Assembly (NCBI GenBank): GCA_913043225.1
Contig: CAJWLU010000023.1
Coordinates: forward strand, 1 to 55,508
Length of the DNA: 55,508 nucleotides
Source of the DNA: an uncultured Acidobacteriota bacterium
Lineage (GTDB): Bacteria; Acidobacteriota; Vicinamibacteria; Vicinamibacterales; UBA8438
Direction of reading: 5' to 3'
Shown: in pieces, positions 1,617-54,100 of the stretch
How the letters are laid out: the number at the start of each line of letters is the position of its first letter
Numbering within the stretch: position 1 is the stretch's first letter
Notes under the pieces: model-generated
What the model was told of the DNA's origin: nothing
What the model saw: only the letters and a program-made list of their open reading frames with translations
Databases searched by the model: none
Position numbers and translations under genes: made by a program

Positions 1617-3968
1617 ATGAGTCATTCGCACCGAGTGTTGGCGCTCGTTTTGGCGTCGATCGTCACGGCCTCGACCGCCGTCGGGCAACGCCGCGACTTC
1701 ATTCCTCCGGTGCCGGCGCCCGACGGGCCGGTGGTGCTCTACAGTGCCGAGGTGCAGCGCATCCGGGTGGTGCCGGTCGCCAACGATCTCGAGCACCCGT
1801 GGGGGATGGCGTTCCGGAGTAACGGCGACATCCTCGTTACCGAGCGCGACAAGGGGACGTTGCGTGTGATCCGGAACGGTCAGTTGCTCGACCGTGACAT
1901 CCCGGGAGTCCCCGAGGTGTTCTCCGATTCTGACCGGGCGGGGCTGATGGACGTGGCCGTCCATCCCGCGGACGACCGGATCGTCTACCTCACCTATTCG
2001 AAGTCGATCCGGACCGACGACGGGGGCGAAGGAGTTACGGTGGCGCTGGCGCGTGGCCGGCTCGACAACGGCAATCTCACCGAGGTGCGCGACATTCTTG
2101 TGGCCGAGGGGGTTGACCGCGGTATCGCCGCTTCACGTTTGGTCTGGGGTCCAGACGACTCGCTCTACATGACGGTGGGCGGTTCCTACGTGTTCGCCGA
2201 CACCGGCAGCTACGCACAGGATCCCGGCACCCACTTTGGCAAGTTGCTTCGACTGAGTGACGACGGCAGTGCCGCGCCGGACAACCCGTTCACCAGCGAT
2301 TCGGCCTATCTCCCCGAGATTTACTCGATGGGCCACCGCAATCAACTGGGGCTGGCCTGGCACCCTGAGACAGGCGATTTGTGGGCGACAGAGAACGGCC
2401 CCCAGGGTGGCGATGAGGCCAACATCATCAAGCCGGGCGCGAACTACGGCTGGCCGCTCGCGTCCTACAGCCGTGAGTACTCGGGTGTGCGAGTGAGCGA
2501 GACACCGTGGCGGCCCGAGTTTGAGGACGCGGAGATCCTCTGGTGGCCCTCCATCGGCCCCTCAGGCCTAGCGTTCTACACCGGTCCTCACTTCCCCGAA
2601 TGGGAGGGCAACCTATTCGTTGGCTCAATGATGGAAGGCCGGATGCCGCGCACCGGACACATCGAACGGATTGTCTTCAACCGTCGCGGCGAAGAGATCC
2701 GCCGCGAGTCGCTCCTGACCGAGCTCAAGCAGCGGATTCGCGACATCCGGCAGGGGCTGGATGGTTATCTCTACGTGTTGACCGACGAGGCCGCCGGTGT
2801 GCTCCTGCGGATCGAGCCGGCCCGTGCCATCGTCGCCCCTCCGGGTAGCAGCGTCTTCATCGACCGGCTGACGGAGGCGCGCGTGCCGTCCCTGCCCCGG
2901 GCCGAGTGGTCGGAGGAGCAGACTGCGATCGCCGAGGCGTTCACCCGGACCGGACCGCCGGGTGAGGCGCTCCGAACGCTCCTTCGCGTGCCGGCGCTAG
3001 CCAATCGGTTCCTGCCGCTGCTGACCTACGTGTCCAACGACTCGACTTTGTCGCCGCGTCACCGCGGCATCCTGATTTTGCGGACTGCCTGGCTCGCCCA
3101 GAACGCCTATCTGTGGTCTGCCCACGCCGACCGCTCGGACCATGGGCTGACTGCAGACGAGATCCAAGGGCTCGCCGAAGGCGAGGCCGACAGCTTCAAC
3201 ACGTTCGAGCAGGTGCTGATCGATCTGGCCGACGAGATGTTCCGGAACTCGGCGGCCACCGACGCCACCTGGACCGAGCTCTCCCGGATGTACGACACCC
3301 GGAATCTCGCCGACGCGGTGGTCACGGTGGCCGACGTTGTCTCGTCCTCGATTCTGTTCAACACCCTCGGCGTCCAACCCGACCCCAGAGCACGGAATCT
3401 GATCCCGAGCGCGGAGGTGGCGTACCGAATCGACGTGCCGGAGCGTGAGACCCCGCTGACCGCGCCCCGCATTGATCCGGTGGAGGGAGACGGCTTGCGG
3501 GTGGGGCGCACCCTGCGCCAGCACCCCGAGATGGAGTCGCAGTGGTATGCGAGTCCGAGCTATGTGAACAATCCAGAGCTCTCGCGGTTGACCCCGTACG
3601 ACCGCGAGATCCTGATTCTCCGCACGGGCTGGAACACGCAGTCGGTCTACGAGTGGGCCAAGCACGTGGGCAGCGTCGGCCGCGCCCGCGATCATGGCCT
3701 AGAGCCGGAGTGGATCGCGCAGGGGCAGGACGCCGCCGGATGGAATGCCACCGAGCGCCTACTGATCAACGCCGCCGACGAGCTGTATCGCGACACGATG
3801 ATCTCGGACCAGACGTGGACCGCCCTGTCGGAGTCCTACGACACCCACCAGATGATGTCGATCGCGGCGACGGTCGCCCGCTACCGCAAGGTGTCGATGA
3901 CCCTGAACGCGCTCGGCGTCCAACCGCTGCCAACGGACGAGGGTTTCCCGGTTCTTGAAGGGTACTGA
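1617..3968 (+). CDS. Soluble PQQ aldose sugar dehydrogenase (GSDH/YliI-like) fused to two AhpD/CMD-like domains
   Basis: Signal peptide; LEHPWGMAF, YSMGHRNQLGLAW, ENGPQGGDE, GANYGWP; C-terminal repeats RGILILRTAWLAQNAYLWSAH and REILILRTGWNTQSVYEWAKH. Confidence 0.85.
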   Translation: MSHSHRVLALVLASIVTASTAVGQRRDFIPPVPAPDGPVVLYSAEVQRIRVVPVANDLEHPWGMAFRSNGDILVTERDKGTLRVIRNGQLLDRDIPGVPEVFSDSDRAGLMDVAVHPADDRIVYLTYSKSIRTDDGGEGVTVALARGRLDNGNLTEVRDILVAEGVDRGIAASRLVWGPDDSLYMTVGGSYVFADTGSYAQDPGTHFGKLLRLSDDGSAAPDNPFTSDSAYLPEIYSMGHRNQLGLAWHPETGDLWATENGPQGGDEANIIKPGANYGWPLASYSREYSGVRVSETPWRPEFEDAEILWWPSIGPSGLAFYTGPHFPEWEGNLFVGSMMEGRMPRTGHIERIVFNRRGEEIRRESLLTELKQRIRDIRQGLDGYLYVLTDEAAGVLLRIEPARAIVAPPGSSVFIDRLTEARVPSLPRAEWSEEQTAIAEAFTRTGPPGEALRTLLRVPALANRFLPLLTYVSNDSTLSPRHRGILILRTAWLAQNAYLWSAHADRSDHGLTADEIQGLAEGEADSFNTFEQVLIDLADEMFRNSAATDATWTELSRMYDTRNLADAVVTVADVVSSSILFNTLGVQPDPRARNLIPSAEVAYRIDVPERETPLTAPRIDPVEGDGLRVGRTLRQHPEMESQWYASPSYVNNPELSRLTPYDREILILRTGWNTQSVYEWAKHVGSVGRARDHGLEPEWIAQGQDAAGWNATERLLINAADELYRDTMISDQTWTALSESYDTHQMMSIAATVARYRKVSMTLNALGVQPLPTDEGFPVLEGY

Positions 3969-4024
3969 GGAGGTTCCGGCAGGGCAGAAACCCCAGGTTC
4001 TGTGACCCACCGCCGGCGCCCGTA

Positions 4025-4063
4025 CGAAAGAAGGGCCTCGGCCGTGTGGACGGCCGAGGCCCT
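4025..4063 (-). terminator. Intrinsic terminator
   Basis: Perfect 14-bp stem AGGGCCTCGGCCGT-N4-ACGGCCGAGGCCCT (4032-4063), followed on the minus strand by TCTTTC. Confidence 0.85.
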
Positions 4064-4139
4064 GAGTCGGGATCTGCGTCAGTGACGTTGGGTTACCCCG
4101 TCCTGGGGAAAACCCTCCACCACTGTTGCTTGGAGGTCC

Positions 4140-4184
4140 CTACGAGGACGTCACCTCCGCAGAGCCGTACTTCAATTCGTCCAC
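4140..4184 (-). CDS. 14-aa small ORF MDELKYGSAEVTSS
   Basis: GTG start 7 nt after GGAGG within AAGGAGGTGATCC (4198-4186); TAG at 4142-4140. Confidence 0.55.
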   Translation of the reverse strand: MDELKYGSAEVTSS

Positions 4185-4314
4185 AGGATCACCTCCTTCG
4201 CAGGCGCACAGCATGCGGCGGGTCCCAACCCGCCCGGCCCCTGGGCCGCCCGGCCACCCACTCGGGGCCGCCGCGCCAGACGTTGCCGCCGACGCGGAAC
4301 CACGACAGGGCCAC

Positions 4315-4343
4315 ATCGTGTGCCCTGGCCCTGCCGTTGTCAA
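4315..4343 (-). promoter_or_regulatory. Sigma-70-type promoter
   Basis: TTGACA (4343-4338), 17-nt spacer, CACGAT (4320-4315). Confidence 0.65.
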
Positions 4344-4358
4344 ACCGGCCCCGCCTCG

Positions 4359-4628
4359 CTACCTGGTCGGTTCGATGACAAGGAGCGTTTGTCGAGTAAT
4401 GCCGCTGCCGGATTTCGCCAGAATCCGCGTGTCGAAGGTGGACAGACACCCTCCGTGAGACTGGGCTAACCCCCACAGGTAGATGTCGGTGAGCTGTCTA
4501 TGCCTGGGGATCATGACCGTGTCGAAGCGGTCGCCGTCGAGCGTCGTTACAGTGTCTGGCCAGAAGTGGTGGCCATTGCCTGAGAAGAATGTGGCCAGGC
4601 GTTCGATCAGGTCTCGTAGGCGATCAAA
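4359..4628 (-). pseudogene. 5'-truncated VapC/PIN-domain toxin remnant
   Basis: Startless frame (in-frame TAA just upstream) reads ...HHFWPDTV...HRQLTDIYLWGLAQSHGGCLSTFDTRI..., resembling the VapC C-terminal pattern H.QLTD.YLL.LA..HGG.L.TFD..I. Confidence 0.7.
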
Positions 4629-5970
4629 TTAACCCCGTCGCCCAGAGTACGTAGACCACAGCCATCGAGGCGGCGCCGTTGACGAAGGTCACTCCCCCGA
4701 ACGAGATCAGCGCGCCCTTCAGCGACATGCGAGATAGCGAGGTGCACACCCAGAAATAGCTCGAATTCACGTACTTGATGATGATCGACCCCGCCGCGCC
4801 GGCGAGCATCGTGGCCTCGGGGCTCAGTCCAAGGGTGTCCATCATCGGGGCGGCGACCGAGGCGGCCGTGATTACGCCCACCGTGGTTGACCCCGTGATC
4901 ATGTTGCCGGCGATGCCGAGCACAAACGGTAGGAAGATGGCGGGCAGCCCGGTTGCGGCCACGGTCTCCGCAATCGCATCCACGGCGGGCGTCGAGCGGA
5001 GGATCTGGCTCAGCGATCCGCCCAGCCCGGTCACCATGATGATCATGGCCGAGCCTCGCAACCCCTCTTCGACCCAGGTGCTAACCCGCGCAGCGGCATG
5101 GTTCGCCTTTGTGTTCCGGTAGGCCAGGAGGATGCCGATGCTCAGGGCGACGACCGGCCATCCCAAATACAGCATGGCGGCATTGACCAGGTGGTCTTCT
5201 GGCAGCGCGAAGGCGGTCACGCTCTGGCTGGCAATCAGGACCAGCGGAATCAGGATCGGGGCGTAGGCGCGCCAGGTGGTCGGGAGCTCGGCCTCTCGTC
5301 CCTGCTCAATGAACGATTGACCGACGAACTCCTCGGATGGCGGCGACTCGATGTGTGGGCCTACGATCTGGGCGTAGGCCCAACCGGCCAGCGCGCCGAT
5401 AAAGGTGGCGAGACCGCCGAAGACGATCACCTGCCCGATGTCGGCGTCAACCAGCGCCACGGCCGCCAGTGGGCCCGGCGTCGGAGGCACCATGGCGTGC
5501 GTGAGTTGCATCGCCCCGACCAGGCCGGTCGCCATAACGCTCATGTTGAGACCGCTGTTGATGGCGGCGGAGTGGACCAGAGGATTCAGGATCACGTAGC
5601 CGACGTCGGAGAAGATCGCCAGGCCGATCACGAACCCGCTTAGGGTCAGCGCGAGCGGCATCCGATGCTGGCCCACCCACCCGATCATCGAAGCCGTAAT
5701 TCGCTCGATCCCGCCTGTGTGCTTGAGCGCCTCGGCCAGGATCGAACCCATCACGATGACCACTGCGATGCCCTGGACGGTGCGTCCGAAGCCTTGCTCG
5801 AAGGCATCGATAAAGGCTTGCCGATCGATCCCCGGGATCAGGGCGAACAGCACGATGGGTACGAGCAGCGCGATGAAGACGTGCCACTTGAATCTAGTGA
5901 TGAGGAGAAACAACAGGGCGACGACGGCCACCAGACCGCCGATGGCGATGAGGACGCTCTCGGTAATCAC
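4624..5970 (-). CDS. GntP family permease (gluconate:H+ symporter-like)
   Basis: Probable GTG start at 5970; many TM helices; FSDVGYVILNPL, THAMVPPTPGPLAA, GSTTVGVITAAS, YVNSSYFW. Confidence 0.85.
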   Translation of the reverse strand: MITESVLIAIGGLVAVVALLFLLITRFKWHVFIALLVPIVLFALIPGIDRQAFIDAFEQGFGRTVQGIAVVIVMGSILAEALKHTGGIERITASMIGWVGQHRMPLALTLSGFVIGLAIFSDVGYVILNPLVHSAAINSGLNMSVMATGLVGAMQLTHAMVPPTPGPLAAVALVDADIGQVIVFGGLATFIGALAGWAYAQIVGPHIESPPSEEFVGQSFIEQGREAELPTTWRAYAPILIPLVLIASQSVTAFALPEDHLVNAAMLYLGWPVVALSIGILLAYRNTKANHAAARVSTWVEEGLRGSAMIIMVTGLGGSLSQILRSTPAVDAIAETVAATGLPAIFLPFVLGIAGNMITGSTTVGVITAASVAAPMMDTLGLSPEATMLAGAAGSIIIKYVNSSYFWVCTSLSRMSLKGALISFGGVTFVNGAASMAVVYVLWATGLI

Positions 5971-6023
5971 ACGGGGAGCATCATGCGCGCGGTCGTTGAT
6001 GTCAATCCGCGTACAATGACGCG

Positions 6024-6320
6024 GTGAGCTATCGCGATAAGCGAGGCGTCGTCTACGACCCTGTGCCGTTGCCCACCCATGAGGTGACCGACGCCGTGGC
6101 CCTCGACGCGCGCCTGGTGCGGCGCCACACCGAGGCTCGCAAGACGATCCCGTTCTACACCGGAGCCGACGGTGTCCAACTGGCGCAGCAGCCAGCCAAC
6201 CATCGCCGGCGCTGGACGGACGCCCAGTGGCTCGCGTTCGAGGAACACCGCAAGCTGGAAGAAGAGGCGTCGCATGTCGACGAGCCTCACGCCGCGGTCT
6301 GGGTGGTCCGCAACCACTAG
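6024..6320 (+). CDS. Hypothetical protein (98 aa)
   Basis: TACAAT 6 nt before GTG (leaderless-type); GC3-rich codons; no family recognised. Confidence 0.55.
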   Translation: MSYRDKRGVVYDPVPLPTHEVTDAVALDARLVRRHTEARKTIPFYTGADGVQLAQQPANHRRRWTDAQWLAFEEHRKLEEEASHVDEPHAAVWVVRNH

Positions 6321-6519
6321 TCGGGTTCCCCGTCACATTCTTGCGGCGGGGCTGACCGGGTTCTACGTGGTCCGCAACCCTGACAAGCTGCGTTGGCTCG
6401 AGGCATTCTGTCGCGCGACGCTTGACCCCGGAGGTCCGATGCGGGCATCCTCGTCTGGATCTGATTAACCCCGGCGGTTGTTGTCCGCCGGCCATGATGT
6501 TTCAAGCGAAGGAGCAGGC

Positions 6520-7831: not shown

Positions 7832-7866
7832 GCACCGGGCGATCCCATGTCAGGATCGCCCGGTGC
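7832..7866 (+). promoter_or_regulatory. 14-bp hairpin covering the RBS and start codon of the symporter gene
   Basis: GCACCGGGCGATCC-CATGTCA-GGATCGCCCGGTGC; the 3' side contains AGGA (7852-7855) and GTG (7863-7865). Confidence 0.6.
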
Positions 7867-9767
7867 AGCTACTGGACTGGCTGATCGTTCTGGCCTTCGT
7901 GGTGTATGCGGTCGGCGTTGGACTCAGACATCGTCGGCAGGCCTCGCGCAGCCTCGAGGAGTACTTCCTGGCGGGTCGCTCGTTGTCCGGCTGGAAGGCC
8001 GGGCTCAGCATGGCGGCCACTCAGTACGGTGCCGACACCCCCCTGCTGGTCACCGGCATCGTCGCCGTCTCGGGCATCTTCGGCGTCTGGCAGTTCTGGA
8101 TCTACGCTGTCACCTTCCTCTTCATGGGGTTCGTACTGGCTGGCGCCTGGCGACGAGCCGGTGTGGTCACCGACGCCGAGCTGACCGAGGTGCGCTACGG
8201 CGGTCCCCCTGCTTCGGTGCTCCGTGGCGTCAAGGCGGTCTATCAGGGCACCATCATCAACTGTGTCTCGCTGGCCTGGGTGCTGTTTGCCGCCGCCAAG
8301 GTCGCCGAGCCGTTCTTGTTGTGGGACCAGTGGTTGCCGGCGGGACTCTTCCTACCGGTGGTCGCTTTGGTTGAGTCCGTCGGTGTGCCGCTCTCGATTG
8401 TGGGTCCCGAGGCGGCAGACGTCTGGGTCCGAACGGCCAGCAACCTGATCTCCCTGTTGCTTATTCTCACGGTCACCGCGCTGTACTCGTCCACCGGCGG
8501 GCTGCGCAGTGTCGCGGCTACCGACGTGGTCCAGATCGGCATCATGTTCGTTGGCACGGTCGCCTTCTCTGTGTTCGTCGTTCGGGAGGCTGGTGGGTTG
8601 GGGGAGATGACCGCGCGGGTGCAGTCTACGTTCTCTGAAGGCGGTCCGGGCGGCATCACGCCGTCACAGATTCTTGCCTTTACCCCGGCGCAGGCGAAGG
8701 ACGCCACGCTGACGGTGCTCTCGATGTTGGGGCTGTTATGGCTCATCAACTCGGTGTCGGACGGATCTGGCTATCTCGCGCAGCGTTCGATGGCGTGCCG
8801 AAGCGACCGCGACGCGAAGACCGCCGCGTTGGTGTTCACCTTCACGCAGGTCGTAGCGCGAAGTCTGATCTGGCTGCCGATCGCCGTCGGGTTGATGGTG
8901 TTGTTCCCGCCGGACCCCTCGCTGCCGCCAGAGCTGCTACAGGGAGATCGTGAGGCCACCTTCGTGCGCGGGATGGCGGAGCTCCTCCCGGTTGGCGTGA
9001 TGGGTCTCATGCTCACCGGCATGCTGGCAGCGCTGGCGTCCACGGTGGATACGCACCTCAACTGGGGGGCGTCTTACTGGACGAACGATCTCTACAAGCG
9101 ATTCATCTGCCAATCGTGGCGTGGCACCGAGCCGAGTGGTCGGTCGCTGGTCTGGGTGGCGCGCGGCTCGAGCCTGGTGATCCTGCTGATCGCCTTGGCG
9201 ATCATGAGCCAGCTCACGTCCATCAATCAGGCGTGGCAGGTCAACTTGCTATTCGGGGCCGGCCTCGGGGTGGTGCAGGTGCTGCGCTGGCTCTGGTGGC
9301 GAATGAACGCCTGGGGGGAGATCTCGGCGATGGCGGTCTCGGCCGTGGCGGCGCCGGTGCTGCTGGCGGCGTTTGGCGATGACCAGCAGGCACTCCGGTT
9401 GTTGCTGATGGGCGCGCTTTCTACGCTGGCGGCGCTGGTCGCGGTCTGGCTGAAAGGGCCGGAGGCGCCTGAGGTTCTGGAAGCGTTCTATCGTCGAGTG
9501 CGTCCGGTTGGCTACTGGCGTCCAGTGGGAGAGATGGTTGACCGGAGTGGCGCCGCAGCCGGGCCCGGCCGTCTCGCTCGAGCCCTGACCGCGATGCTAT
9601 TGTGCGCAGTGACGGTCTTTAGCGTGCTGGTCGGGTTCGGTACTTGGATGCTAGGCAGCCCGGCACCGGCCGGAATACCGACCCCGGTCTGGGTGGTATC
9701 CCTGCTGCTGGTAGGTGCGGGGGTTGCCCCGTTTTGGTGTCGACTCGGGTTCGGCCGCGACGCCTAA
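7863..9767 (+). CDS. Sodium:solute symporter (SSS) family protein
   Basis: EYFLAGRSL, SMAATQYGADTPL, GYLAQR, STVDTHLNWGASYWTND. Confidence 0.9.
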   Translation: MQLLDWLIVLAFVVYAVGVGLRHRRQASRSLEEYFLAGRSLSGWKAGLSMAATQYGADTPLLVTGIVAVSGIFGVWQFWIYAVTFLFMGFVLAGAWRRAGVVTDAELTEVRYGGPPASVLRGVKAVYQGTIINCVSLAWVLFAAAKVAEPFLLWDQWLPAGLFLPVVALVESVGVPLSIVGPEAADVWVRTASNLISLLLILTVTALYSSTGGLRSVAATDVVQIGIMFVGTVAFSVFVVREAGGLGEMTARVQSTFSEGGPGGITPSQILAFTPAQAKDATLTVLSMLGLLWLINSVSDGSGYLAQRSMACRSDRDAKTAALVFTFTQVVARSLIWLPIAVGLMVLFPPDPSLPPELLQGDREATFVRGMAELLPVGVMGLMLTGMLAALASTVDTHLNWGASYWTNDLYKRFICQSWRGTEPSGRSLVWVARGSSLVILLIALAIMSQLTSINQAWQVNLLFGAGLGVVQVLRWLWWRMNAWGEISAMAVSAVAAPVLLAAFGDDQQALRLLLMGALSTLAALVAVWLKGPEAPEVLEAFYRRVRPVGYWRPVGEMVDRSGAAAGPGRLARALTAMLLCAVTVFSVLVGFGTWMLGSPAPAGIPTPVWVVSLLLVGAGVAPFWCRLGFGRDA

Positions 9768-51180: not shown

Positions 51181-54100
51181 ATGTCGCTATCTCGCCGCAC
51201 GTTCCTCAAGGTCTCGGTCGGCGCCGCGGCCGGCGTCAGCGCGCTCGGGTTCGACCTGCAGCCGGCCTACGCCGCGGTGCGGCAGCTCAAGATTCGGAAC
51301 GCCCGCGAGTACAAGACGGTCTGCCCCTACTGCGCCGTGGGCTGCGGCACCATCGCCTATACCCACGGCAGCGGCGGACTGAACACCACCAACACGGTCA
51401 TCCACGTCGAAGGCGACCCCGATAGCCCAATCAACGGCGGCACCCTGTGCCCCAAGGGTGCGTCGCAGATGCAACTGGCCATCAGCCCGCGGCTGAAGAA
51501 GAGCCCGATGTATCGGGCCGCCGGCGCCAGCGAGTGGCAGGAAGTCGACTGGGACTTCGCCATGGACTGGTTCGCGCGCAAGTTCAAGGAGTCGCGCGAC
51601 CGCACTTTCGTCGAGCAGGACAGCCAGGGGCGCACGGTTAACCGCTGCAACGGCATCGCCTGGGTCGGCAGCGCGACGGTGGCCAACGAGGACGCGTATC
51701 TCATCACGAAGACGATGCGTGCCATGGGGCTAACCTACATCGACCATCAGGCCCGCATATGACACAGCCCCACGGTGGCCAGTCTGGCCGCCACGTTCGG
51801 TCGCGGGGCGATGACCAACCACTGGAAGGACATCAAGAACGCCGATGTCGTACTGGTGATGGGGGCCAACCCGGCCGAGAATCATCCCTGCGGCTTCAAG
51901 TGGGCGGTCGAGGCGCGTGACGAGAACAACGCCACGCTTGTCACCATCGATCCCAGATACACGCGGACATCGGCGGTGGCCGACAAGCACATGCAGATCC
52001 GCCCGGGGTCTGACATCGCGGTGCTGGGCGGGCTGATCCGTCACATTCTGGCCAACGACCTCCACCATGCCGACTACGTCCGTACCCACACCAACGCTTC
52101 GTTCATTGTCAGCGGCGACTTTGGGTTCGAAGACGGGCTGTTCTCGGGCTTCGAGGAGGCGGCCGGCGCCTACGACAAGACGTCTTGGGGCTACGAGCGG
52201 GGACCGGATGGCTATGTGCGGCGTGACGAGACGCTTGAGGACCCGCGCGCCGTCTTTCAGCTGCTGAAGCAGCACTACGACCGCTACACGCCGGACGTGG
52301 TGGCCCAGATCGCCGGCTGCACCGAGGAGAAGTTCCTCGAGATGGCCGACATCATCTGCTCCACCGGTCGTGCCGACCGGGTGGGCACGATCATGTACGC
52401 GGTGGGCTGGACCATGCACACCGTGGGTAGCCAGATCATCCGGACCGCGGCCATCCTGCAGCTCCTCTTGGGGAACATCGGCCGTCCGGGTGGCGGGATC
52501 AACGCACTCCGAGGCCACGCCAACGTGCAAGGTGCGACCGACCACGCGATCGTGGCGGGCATTCTCCCGGGCTACTTGAAGGTGCCGACGCCAGACCAAG
52601 GCAGTTTCGACGCGCATCTCGCGGCGTCGACGCCGACGCCGCTGGTGCCGGACACGGTCAATTACTGGGGGAATTACCCCAAGTTCCTCGTGTCCCAGCT
52701 CAAGGCCTGGTTCGGCGATCACGCTACCGAGGCCAACGAGTTCGGCTACCACTACCTCGGTAAGCAGGACGGCGACGCCACCTGGCTCTCGATCTGGGAT
52801 CAAGTCCGGCAGGGCAGCATTGAGGGCTTCGTGTCTCTCGGCTTCAATCCGTTGCTGGCGGGTCCCGACGTTCCTAGACTCCTGGAGTCGATGGCTCAGT
52901 TGCAGTGGAAGGTGGTCATCGATCCGTTCATGCTCGACAGCGCCGAGTTCTGGCGGGCGCCAGGGGTCGACCCCGCCACGGTCCAGACCGAGGTGATGTA
53001 TTTCCCCACCACGCACTGGATCGAGCGGGACGGTTCGTTTACCAACAGCGGGCGGTGGGCGCAGTGGAAGGAAAAGGCGATCGACGCGCCTGACGGGGTG
53101 CGGTCGGACACCTACGTGCTGTCGGAGCTGTTCTGGCGGGTCAAGGAGCTCTATCGCGAGGACGGCGAGGACGCCGTCTACCACGACCCGATCGAGCACC
53201 TCACCTGGGACTATCTCAATCCGCGGCTGCCGACCCTGGTCGAGCTCGCCAAGGAGATCAACGGCTACGACCGTGAGACGGGCCGGTTGCTGTCGTCATT
53301 CGGCGAGCTCGCTGCCGATGGCTCCACCACCTCGGGCAACTGGATCTACACCGGCAGCTACACCGAGGAAGGCAACATGATGGCGCGGCGGGACACCGCC
53401 GATCCCACGGGGCTCGGGATGCACCACGGCTGGGCGTTTAGTTGGCCGCTCAACCGGCGCGTCCTCTACAACCGGGCGTCGGCAGACGCCGACGGGCGGC
53501 CCTGGGAGGCGTCTCGCGCCGGTATCGCCTGGAACGGTCGTGAGTGGATTGGCGACGTGCCGGACTACGGTCGGACGACGCCGCCGGACGGGCCCGGGGC
53601 GTTCATCATGACCGAGGAGGGCGTGGCGCGGCTGTTCAGCAGCCATCTGGCCGACGGTCCGCTGTCCGAGCACTACGAGCCTGTCGAGAGCCCGACAGGT
53701 AATCCGCTGCACCCCGCGGTGCCGATCAACCCGACCATCAACTGGTATGACGGCGTGCGGGAGACGCTGGCCACCGCCGACGACGATTTCCCGTACGCCT
53801 GCACCGTCTACCGTGTGGTGGAGCACGAGCATTTCGTGACCCGGAACGTGCCGCTGCTCGTCGAGGCGATGCCGGACTTTTTCGTCGAGATCCCCGAAGG
53901 GCTCGCGGCTGAGAAAGGGATCGCTAACGGATCGCGGGCTCGGGTCTGGTCGAAACGTGGCGAGGTCGAAGGCGTGGCGATCGTCACCAAGCGGATCAAG
54001 CCACTGACGGTGAACGGTCAGACCGTGTGGACGGTCGGCATCCCCGTCCACTGGGGATTCGTGGGTATCACGCAGGGGTCGATGGCCAATCTCCTCACGC

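Follow-up and report, generated by a model that had tools for sequence, protein, structure and literature searches.

What is encoded by a transcription unit of ~280 nucleotides (nt) that has its own promoter and terminator and a reading frame of only 14 codons? The question is raised by a locus in the genome of an uncultured Acidobacteriota bacterium of the order Vicinamibacterales (assembly GCA_913043225.1), where the element lies on the minus strand at ~4343-4025 of contig CAJWLU010000023.1. The whole stretch of DNA analysed, positions 1 to 55,508 of this contig, is called the window, and all coordinates are window positions. An earlier reading of the bare sequence (the original prediction) had proposed an unannotated dual-function RNA or micropeptide system at this site, possibly acting on ribosomes. 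The element is a previously undescribed stand-alone structured RNA gene of ~280 nt in Acidobacteriota. With moderate confidence, we consider it to be a ribosome-engaging RNA whose fold is gated by translation, so that it is the act of translating the short frame, and not the peptide, that would be kept by selection.

Acidobacteriota are among the most abundant bacteria of soils and sediments, and, to our knowledge, their RNA biology is almost unexplored. The element is a candidate for a new RNA family that has been missed by gene callers and by Rfam; its alignment, structure, and covariance model now exist.

Distribution of the RNA gene

At the DNA level, 23 of 60 relatives searched contain strong matches (E <= 4e-10, 71-92% identity across 120-320 nt), 22 of them within the family of the window's genome and one in another family of the order. 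In addition, one genome per species was scanned with an exact pattern comprising the Shine-Dalgarno (SD) sequence, the start codon, 12-36 free bases, and the conserved end of the open reading frame (ORF), giving 75 loci. The record titles of 71 of these name Vicinamibacterales, Vicinamibacteria, Vicinamibacteraceae, or Acidobacteria/Acidobacteriota metagenome-assembled genomes (MAGs), while the remaining four are titled Thermoanaerobaculia, "uncultured bacterium", Alphaproteobacteria, and Gemmatimonadota. Of the two MAGs labelled Alphaproteobacteria and Gemmatimonadota, the first carries an RNA nearly identical to that of Vicinamibacterales MAGs, which suggests that a contig was mislabelled or mis-binned and does not point to a broader range of hosts. 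The exact pattern has no match in viral contigs, and a phage origin was rejected on this ground.

To reach distant homologs, a covariance model (R1; 142 positions, 28 pairs) representing the 3' domain was run over 151 genomes sampled across the phylum. Here, 24 genomes carry exactly one full-length match each (E 2e-32 to 3e-7), and 21 of these are labelled as lying outside the window's class, including every genome of two families (5/5 and 6/6). In the order to which the window's genome belongs, carriers are scattered (10 of 121 genomes positive), and in one genus the RNA is found in 12 of 14 genomes. The genome of the window itself contains a single copy. The original prediction had made its case depend on homologs, and these occur across Acidobacteriota; the distribution indicates that the RNA gene is widespread and mostly vertically inherited.

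Promoter, terminator, and expression

The promoter first read from the sequence, TTGACA-17-CACGAT, is present, and its sequence and spacing are conserved among homologs as TTGACA-17-nACGAT. It is not listed by a generic consensus promoter scan because its -10 hexamer is CACGAT. At the other end, a terminator scan recovers the perfect 14-bp stem of the original prediction at 4063-4032, followed directly by a T-rich tail, as the sole such site in 3500-5000. The 286-nt predicted RNA folds with -160.7 kcal/mol, compared with -135.2 +/- 5.7 for dinucleotide shuffles (z = -4.49), and none of 200 shuffles folds as well.

The element is expressed, in the sense that it is present in RNA libraries. A 601-nt query around it has partial matches in six RNA-library runs, four of which, from three studies, were mapped onto 3400-5000. 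Each of the four contains one whole contig lying wholly inside the element, with 1-3 differing letters and no loose ends (151 nt at 4058-4208, 221 at 4064-4284, 212 at 4061-4272, and 229 at 4070-4296). The flanks (3400-4047 and 4318-5000) have no cover in three runs, where missing cover is not evidence, and hold only partly fitting pieces of 90-95% likeness in the fourth (4407-4556 and 4786-4818). The contigs also display strain variants, given here as plus-strand letters. One, 4187 G>A, occurs in two runs and replaces a C of the extended SD by the U that some homologs have as well; the other, 4242 T>G, occurs in three runs and restores, within hairpin P2, the C of the nearest relative.

No known RNA family accounts for the element. 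Using cmscan against Rfam 15 at gathering thresholds, as advised in the original prediction, no family is found on it, and the only match in the window is a SECIS_3 at a distance, described below. A permissive scan of 3900-4500 (E up to 10) reaches at best 11-25 bits against thresholds of 35-96, with every match centred on the terminator; the weak matches to mir-4523, Atu_C4, CC2171, and isrL rest on the terminator hairpin and were rejected. ARAGORN identifies neither a tRNA nor a tmRNA in 3800-4600. The tmRNA of this genome lies on another contig (RF00023 match, C12:73-425, 185 bits), and its 6S, SRP, and RNase P RNAs are also found elsewhere, each above its Rfam cut-off, in agreement with the earlier remark that the element lacks the hallmarks of all four. 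In the parts of the open-access literature and of bioRxiv that were accessible, no description of such an RNA was found. Taken together, conservation, presence in RNA libraries, and the lack of an Rfam match support a stand-alone, unannotated structured RNA with its own promoter and terminator.

A covarying fold with two pseudoknots

The fold was assessed on alignment A3, a MAFFT alignment of 44 sequences less than ~90% alike that includes 14 distant homologs. Standard pairs form in 87.8% of the cells, a share that drops to 36-50% once the partners are shifted by 1-3 columns, and 31 of the 43 pairs have changed on both sides (shuffle mean 15.6; none of 500 shuffles reaches 31), for a structure that was derived from the same sequences. 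The covariation score is 0.262, compared with 0.166 for shuffles. The three abutting 5' hairpins of the original prediction (P1, P2, and P3) are all backed by covariation, and so are the two pseudoknots (PK1 and PK2) and the paired helices P4 and P4b; for the pseudoknots, the support consists of covariation counts from MAFFT alignments. The GCAA loop noted on P1 is present in the window, but as an insertion that is found in no homolog other than that of the closest relative.

The 5' hairpins are tied into the rest of the RNA at two points. PK1 links P2 to the segment directly preceding the SD, with the variants GAGCG:CGCUC, GAGCA:UGCUC, and CGGCG:CGCCG in distant homologs, while PK2 links P3 to the strand beside P4b, with the variants AGGGG:CCCCU, CUGG:CCAG, and UGGGA:UCCCA. 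A local GGG:CCC helix proposed by RNAalifold (P5b) was replaced by PK2, given these compensatory variants. RNAalifold, applied to alignment A1 and sub-alignments, otherwise recovers P2, P3, P4b, and the terminator and misses the pseudoknots. All-against-all mutual information on A1 is dominated by relatedness and was not used.

The pairing around the reading frame differs from the one first proposed. A helix between CTGCG (4203-4199) and CGCAG (4078-4074), thought to enclose the ribosome-binding site and the ORF, can form in the window but is not conserved across genomes. The conserved and covarying partner of CGCAG is a CUGCG inside the ORF, within 4166-4158. This pairing forms P4, whose compensatory variants include CGUUUCG:CGGAACG and GGUUUGAC:GUCAGACC. 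P4 and P4b together are 84.8% paired in A3, and for P4b 99.0% of cells are paired over 64 sequences. Five positions vary in the 3' strand of P4b, all with changes that keep G-U or A-U pairs, and the G-to-A change of the window in the ORF strand is matched by C-to-T in the partner. Since the frequent G-U pairs of P4b would be mismatches on the opposite strand, the functional strand is the minus strand.

Downstream of the frame, P6 holds the stop codon in its loop, and 36 of 44 distinct local segments fold into P6 on their own. In the P5 region, four of the five pairs of P5x have changed on both sides, and their pairing of 68.7% reflects uncertain alignment there. The hairpin at 4125-4080 in the original prediction corresponds to a local alternative, P5a, in which 4125-4118 pairs with the 3' strand of P4b. 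P5a is seen in the thermodynamic fold and is 78% paired, and it competes for its strand with the better-paired P4b; the RNA may switch between the two. The putative pairing of the 5' end with the base of the terminator involves stretches that vary freely among homologs. The features are listed in Table 1.

Table 1 Features of the RNA element in window coordinates. Pairing and two-sided changes refer to A3.
Feature	Position	Strand	Remarks
-35 box TTGACA	4338..4343	-	Read from sequence; kept in most Vicinamibacteria homologs and several distant ones
-10 box CACGAT	4315..4320	-	17 nt past the -35 box; family consensus nACGAT
Predicted transcript, ~280 nt	4026..4308	-	5' end inferred from promoter spacing, 3' end from terminator
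P1 hairpin CCGCGT...GCGCGG	4271..4297	-	Variable apex; 81.7% paired; 5/6 pairs changed on both sides
P2 hairpin	4236..4269	-	Outer stem 92.7% paired; 4/5 pairs changed on both sides
PK1 5' strand GGGCG	4251-4247	-	In P2 apical loop; pairs with 4206-4202
P3 hairpin GGCGGG/CCCGCC	4217..4234	-	97.7% paired; 6/6 pairs changed on both sides
PK2 5' strand TTGGGA	4228-4223	-	In P3 loop; pairs with 4093-4088
PK1 3' strand CGCCT	4202..4206	-	CGCCC in most homologs; directly 5' of SD; 94.5% paired; 3/5 pairs changed on both sides
Shine-Dalgarno AAGGAGGTGATCC	4186..4198	-	13-nt perfect complement of 16S rRNA 3' tail; core invariant
14-codon ORF GTG...TAG, peptide MDELKYGSAEVTSS	4140..4184	-	GTG 4184-4182, TAG 4142-4140
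P4 5' strand GGCTCTGCG	4158..4166	-	GGYUCUGCG with degenerate letter; codons 7-9; pairs with 4078-4071
P4b 5' strand GGTGACG	4149..4155	-	Codons 10-12; pairs with 4087-4081; GA/GA internal loop between P4 and P4b
P6 hairpin GTCC-TCGTAG-GGAC	4136..4149	-	Stop codon in loop; stem variants CCCC:GGGG, CUUC:GAAG in distant homologs
P5 region	4094..4135	-	CCUCC-initiated hairpin, then CCCC...GGGG hairpin; between P6 and PK2; alignment less certain
PK2 3' strand ACCCAA	4088..4093	-	Adjoins P4b; 81.8% paired; 3/6 pairs changed on both sides
P4b 3' strand CGTCACT	4081..4087	-	Local alternative partner in the window is 4125-4118
P4 3' strand CGCAGATC	4071..4078	-	CGCAGAYC with degenerate letter; pairs with codons 7-9
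Intrinsic terminator	4025..4063	-	14-bp stem, 4-nt loop, T-rich tail; terminator scan; stem covaries

A ribosome-binding site and a constant reading frame

The SD sequence that the original prediction placed ahead of the ORF was compared with the 3' end of 16S rRNA. The 16S rRNA of the genome itself is not assembled, and the 3' ends were taken from related genomes: in one distant carrier and in two members of the same family, the 16S genes terminate with ...CUGGAUCACCUCCUUUCU, and AAGGAGGUGAUCC is perfectly complementary over 13 nt to GGAUCACCUCCUU of this end. The complemented segment is essentially the complete free 3' tail. The core of the SD is invariant in 74 Vicinamibacteria sequences, and distant homologs display slight changes only, e.g., GGGGGUGAUCC and GGAGGUGGUCC. 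The start codon, ~7 nt downstream, is GTG in 94 of 95 homologs and TTG in one.

The ORF recognised earlier at this site keeps both its length and its openness in homologs. It comprises 14 codons in 92 of the 95, 15 in two, and 13 in one, so that the exceptions differ by whole codons. The stop, TAG or TAA, is fixed in position, while the two codons preceding it vary widely (SS, SL, SF, FP, YP, AP, TS, SR, VP). Among 64 distinct ORFs, stop triplets are found 24 times in frame +1, 51 times in frame +2, and never in frame. These 75 out-of-frame triplets represent 19 combinations of position and triplet, and relatedness among the sequences inflates the counts; by ORF, 22 of 64 are affected in +1, 42 of 64 in +2, and none in frame. 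The complete absence of in-frame stops argues that the ORF is kept open by selection.

The frame is built into the fold. The SD, the start codon, and approximately six codons lie between PK1 and P4, and the rest of the frame lies in P4, P4b, and P6. A maximal ribosome-binding site and a mini-frame of constant length are thus located inside the tertiary structure of an intricately folded, single-copy RNA found across a phylum.

Translation as a possible gate of the fold

From the 13-nt complement to the 16S tail and the frame that is kept open, it can be inferred that the RNA acts on ribosomes, as the original prediction had supposed, and probably it works via ribosome engagement and not via its peptide. 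In the explanation that we favour, 30S subunits would dock on the anti-SD complement and initiate at the GUG. P4 and P4b abut PK2, and therefore translation would open the whole fold: a ribosome reaching the stop codon must melt P4/P4b and, with them, the adjoining pseudoknot. Without translation the RNA would stay compact, giving two states set by translation; alternatively, the RNA could hold ribosomes at a structure that is hard to melt. It could be speculated that the two states serve to hold or release a partner, to report translational capacity, or to tie up 30S subunits.

A bolder form of this explanation, possible but on balance doubtful, sees the RNA as an mRNA mimic by which the translation machinery itself would be regulated or sequestered. 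Here, 30S subunits would be captured via the complement to the entire 16S 3' tail and then parked, as 6S RNA does with RNA polymerase, or the passage of a ribosome through the knotted fold would read out translational capacity and release or bind a partner. 6S RNA, which is conserved and stand-alone, imitates a substrate of RNA polymerase and ties up this core machine. By analogy only, the element may mimic an initiation site through its full anti-SD complement, whereas its target would be the 30S subunit, its fold differs, and the 6S RNA of the genome lies elsewhere.

Should the fold be gated by passing ribosomes, or should 30S subunits be held by the RNA, then RNA structure would be coupled to translation status in a new way, and growth control could be approached in organisms that are difficult to grow in the laboratory. 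Structured small RNAs with a translated frame are a known kind, and the element could be categorically new if the ribosome-directed role holds; the bolder form, if true, would mean that slow-growing Acidobacteriota possess a new class of regulatory RNA directed at the ribosome.

Several observations weigh against a role that depends on translation. That the ORF is translated is itself deduced from sequence. Synonymous and non-synonymous changes, counted as single-base changes on a tree built from non-ORF columns, stand at 36/80 in frame versus 24/61 and 26/67 in the other frames, i.e., without a difference; this would fit an irrelevant peptide and equally well a frame that is not translated. 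The excess of third-position changes in codons 2-6 is modest (50, 45, and 70 changes at positions 1, 2, and 3). The long SD is rare but not unique, as its 11-mer AGGAGGTGATC occurs at five other sites of the genome, and in a constrained partition function the SD has a mean unpaired probability of 0.47, meaning that about half of it is unpaired. The contigs from RNA libraries speak for presence only and not for transcript ends, strand, or abundance, and thus give no backing to the high expression envisaged in the original prediction. Finally, in the genus with 12 carriers among 14 genomes, one genome that is complete in a single contig is without the RNA (the other non-carrier, in which the RNA was not found, is 71% complete), indicating that the gene is dispensable. 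For comparison, AGGAGGTGATC occurs six times in the 3.85 Mb of the window's own genome, versus three times for a reversed control.

Is the frame translated, and does the peptide matter?

The most serious competitor, although in our view unlikely, is an RNA that is not translated at all, in which the SD-like stretch binds a protein, a C-rich RNA, or the 16S tail as a sponge and the ORF is incidental. Such an RNA would be expected to be conserved at the nucleotide and not at the amino-acid level, as is the case here; half of the ORF is locked in helices, and the start is always GTG or TTG and never ATG. It would leave unexplained, however, why none of the 75 stop triplets falls in frame when most of the distinct ORFs have one in +2, why the length of the ORF changes by whole codons only, why the spacing between SD and start is kept, and why the stop triplet is fixed inside a hairpin loop that is otherwise variable.

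Quite improbable as well is an ordinary small-protein gene, whose product is the 14-residue peptide and whose RNA structure serves stability or translational control. The strong SD, the start, the stop, the constant length, and the open frame are all features of such a gene, and in the peptide E-V-A at positions 10-12 is nearly invariant and G7 is common. Yet it is precisely these residues that the strands of P4 and P4b encode, and the codons concerned are invariant at synonymous sites too. Positions outside the helices are free to vary: 35 different peptides are found among 99 sequences, with more in distant homologs, and the synonymous counts show no excess over the other frames. Moreover, ~115 nt of covarying 5' domain and two pseudoknots exceed the needs of a 45-nt mRNA, and no conserved partner or processing genes lie nearby. 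Of the dual-function RNA or micropeptide first proposed, the structured RNA with an open frame is thus supported, whereas the micropeptide is not, as its sequence varies freely outside the base-paired stretches.

The same evidence separates the element from established dual-function small RNAs that carry a small protein, such as RNAIII/hld, SgrS/SgrT, and SR1/SR1P. Like these, it is stand-alone, with its own promoter and terminator and a short ORF aboard. The known examples combine a conserved peptide, which is a functional product, with an RNA part that base-pairs to exert its effect, whereas purifying selection at the amino-acid level was not found for the peptide of the element, which is unconserved beyond the nucleotides constrained by helices; in addition, the ORF is built into a tertiary fold, and there is no sequence or Rfam relationship. 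Type I toxin-antitoxin systems do not match either, the peptides being acidic or hydrophilic and the promoter scan yielding no antisense promoter, and the frequent G-U pairs argue for one functional strand and against an antisense pair. A precursor of a ribosomally synthesised and post-translationally modified peptide (RiPP) or of a peptide cofactor (e.g., PqqA-like) finds no support, as no maturation gene recurs in the flanks.

For a ribosome-engaging, translation-gated RNA, the closest known system in terms of what the element may do is tmRNA (SsrA). Both are stand-alone, pseudoknotted RNAs of a few hundred nt with a short embedded frame for the ribosome, and both would engage the ribosome directly; in tmRNA, the end of the tag reading frame lies in a hairpin. 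The element is not a tmRNA: a tRNA-like domain is absent, the frame can be initiated in the ordinary way from an SD and a start codon, both of which the tag frame of tmRNA lacks, and the ends of the encoded peptides vary (SS, AP, YP, SL, and others), unlike a fixed degradation tag. Finally, Downstream-peptide, Acido-1, and Acido-Lenti-1, Rfam families of structured RNAs near very short ORFs or from Acidobacteria, are likewise RNA candidates from comparative genomics, some of them before tiny ORFs or in the same phylum, but none reaches E <= 10 on the element in the permissive scan.

Genomic surroundings and a cis-acting role

A further possibility is a cis-acting leader or attenuator, in which transcription would pass the terminator into a downstream gene or not, depending on translation of a leader peptide. 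The short ORF, the alternative pairings P4b and P5a, and a terminator that follows directly resemble the attenuators of trp, his, and phe leaders, where translation would likewise swap helices, and in some loci a co-directional gene follows. The surroundings make this reading very unlikely. In the window, the next gene downstream is a converging GSDH-CMD fusion gene (1617-3968, +). Among 36 diverse loci, the next downstream gene supported by Pfam converges in 12, the families being aldehyde dehydrogenase, alpha/beta hydrolase, HGSNAT, amidohydrolase, GSDH, SSF, PTE, RecQ, and FtsX-like permease. Where it is co-directional, no relationship links the families found (MoeA, PQQ_2, DUF4159, M48, CAP). 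Within one genus, only the RNA gene is conserved, while the distance to its neighbours shifts by 10-20 kb. As the flanking genes differ between genomes, the element is a gene in its own right and not a leader. Unlike leader attenuators, it also has no conserved downstream gene and no run of a regulatory codon, and it has a large 5' domain and two pseudoknots. The context of the loci was determined with Pfam scans, since clustering of the longest ORFs was spoiled by spurious frames in GC-rich DNA.

A chance structure in GC-rich intergenic DNA, where numerous alternative pairings could form, and a divergent copy of a housekeeping RNA can both be dismissed as already refuted by the phylum-wide conservation and covariation, the fold z-score, the tmRNA, 6S, SRP, and RNase P RNAs found elsewhere above their cut-offs, and the lack of any ARAGORN hit at the site.

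Neighbouring genes and other observations

On the upstream side, a PIN/VapC-like stretch (4359-4628, -) without a start lies behind a GntP-family permease gene (4624-6495, -) and looks like a decayed toxin-antitoxin remnant. It comprises the C-terminal two-thirds of such a protein (...QLTDIYLWGLAQSHGGCLSTFDTRI...), is preceded by a stop codon with no usable start, and adjoins the promoter of the RNA gene. The ORF of the permease encodes 623 amino acids (aa), of which the Pfam match begins only at residue 188, so that the protein has a long N-terminal extension or the start lies further in. The converging downstream gene encodes a protein of 783 aa with a PQQ-type glucose/sorbosone dehydrogenase and a carboxymuconolactone-decarboxylase domain. 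In two other loci, too, this fusion is encoded by a gene converging on that of the RNA, and an ORF cluster represented by it does so in 9 of the 75 loci.

Two functional links to neighbours were considered and not retained. PQQ-dependent dehydrogenases are neighbours in many loci, but they are uninformative because the genome has 181 PQQ_2 and 19 GSDH matches, and the link was rejected. A gene for an SSF symporter lies divergently upstream in 9 of 34 loci, and that of the window is found at 7863-9767, 3.5 kb away; a link to this family is unsupported, the synteny being partial and at the level of the family only. The PQQ_2 matches represent a very large expansion of beta-propellers of this type in a genome of 3.85 Mb.

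Comparing a carrier with the complete non-carrier of the same genus, the two genomes are syntenic at 81-84% identity to ~250 nt past the terminator, after which there is no similarity. At that break, the complete non-carrier lacks the RNA together with the next 10 kb.

Three stop-free frames of 95-110 aa extend over the RNA gene, at 4189-4476 (-), 4046-4378 (+), and 4126-4458 (+), and none has a Pfam match. They are of the spurious kind typical of GC-rich DNA, and a gene caller might annotate one of them instead of the RNA. Elsewhere in the window, the SECIS_3 match at 51757-51815 (+) scores 67.1 bits against a threshold of 63 and implies a selenoprotein gene with an in-frame TGA.

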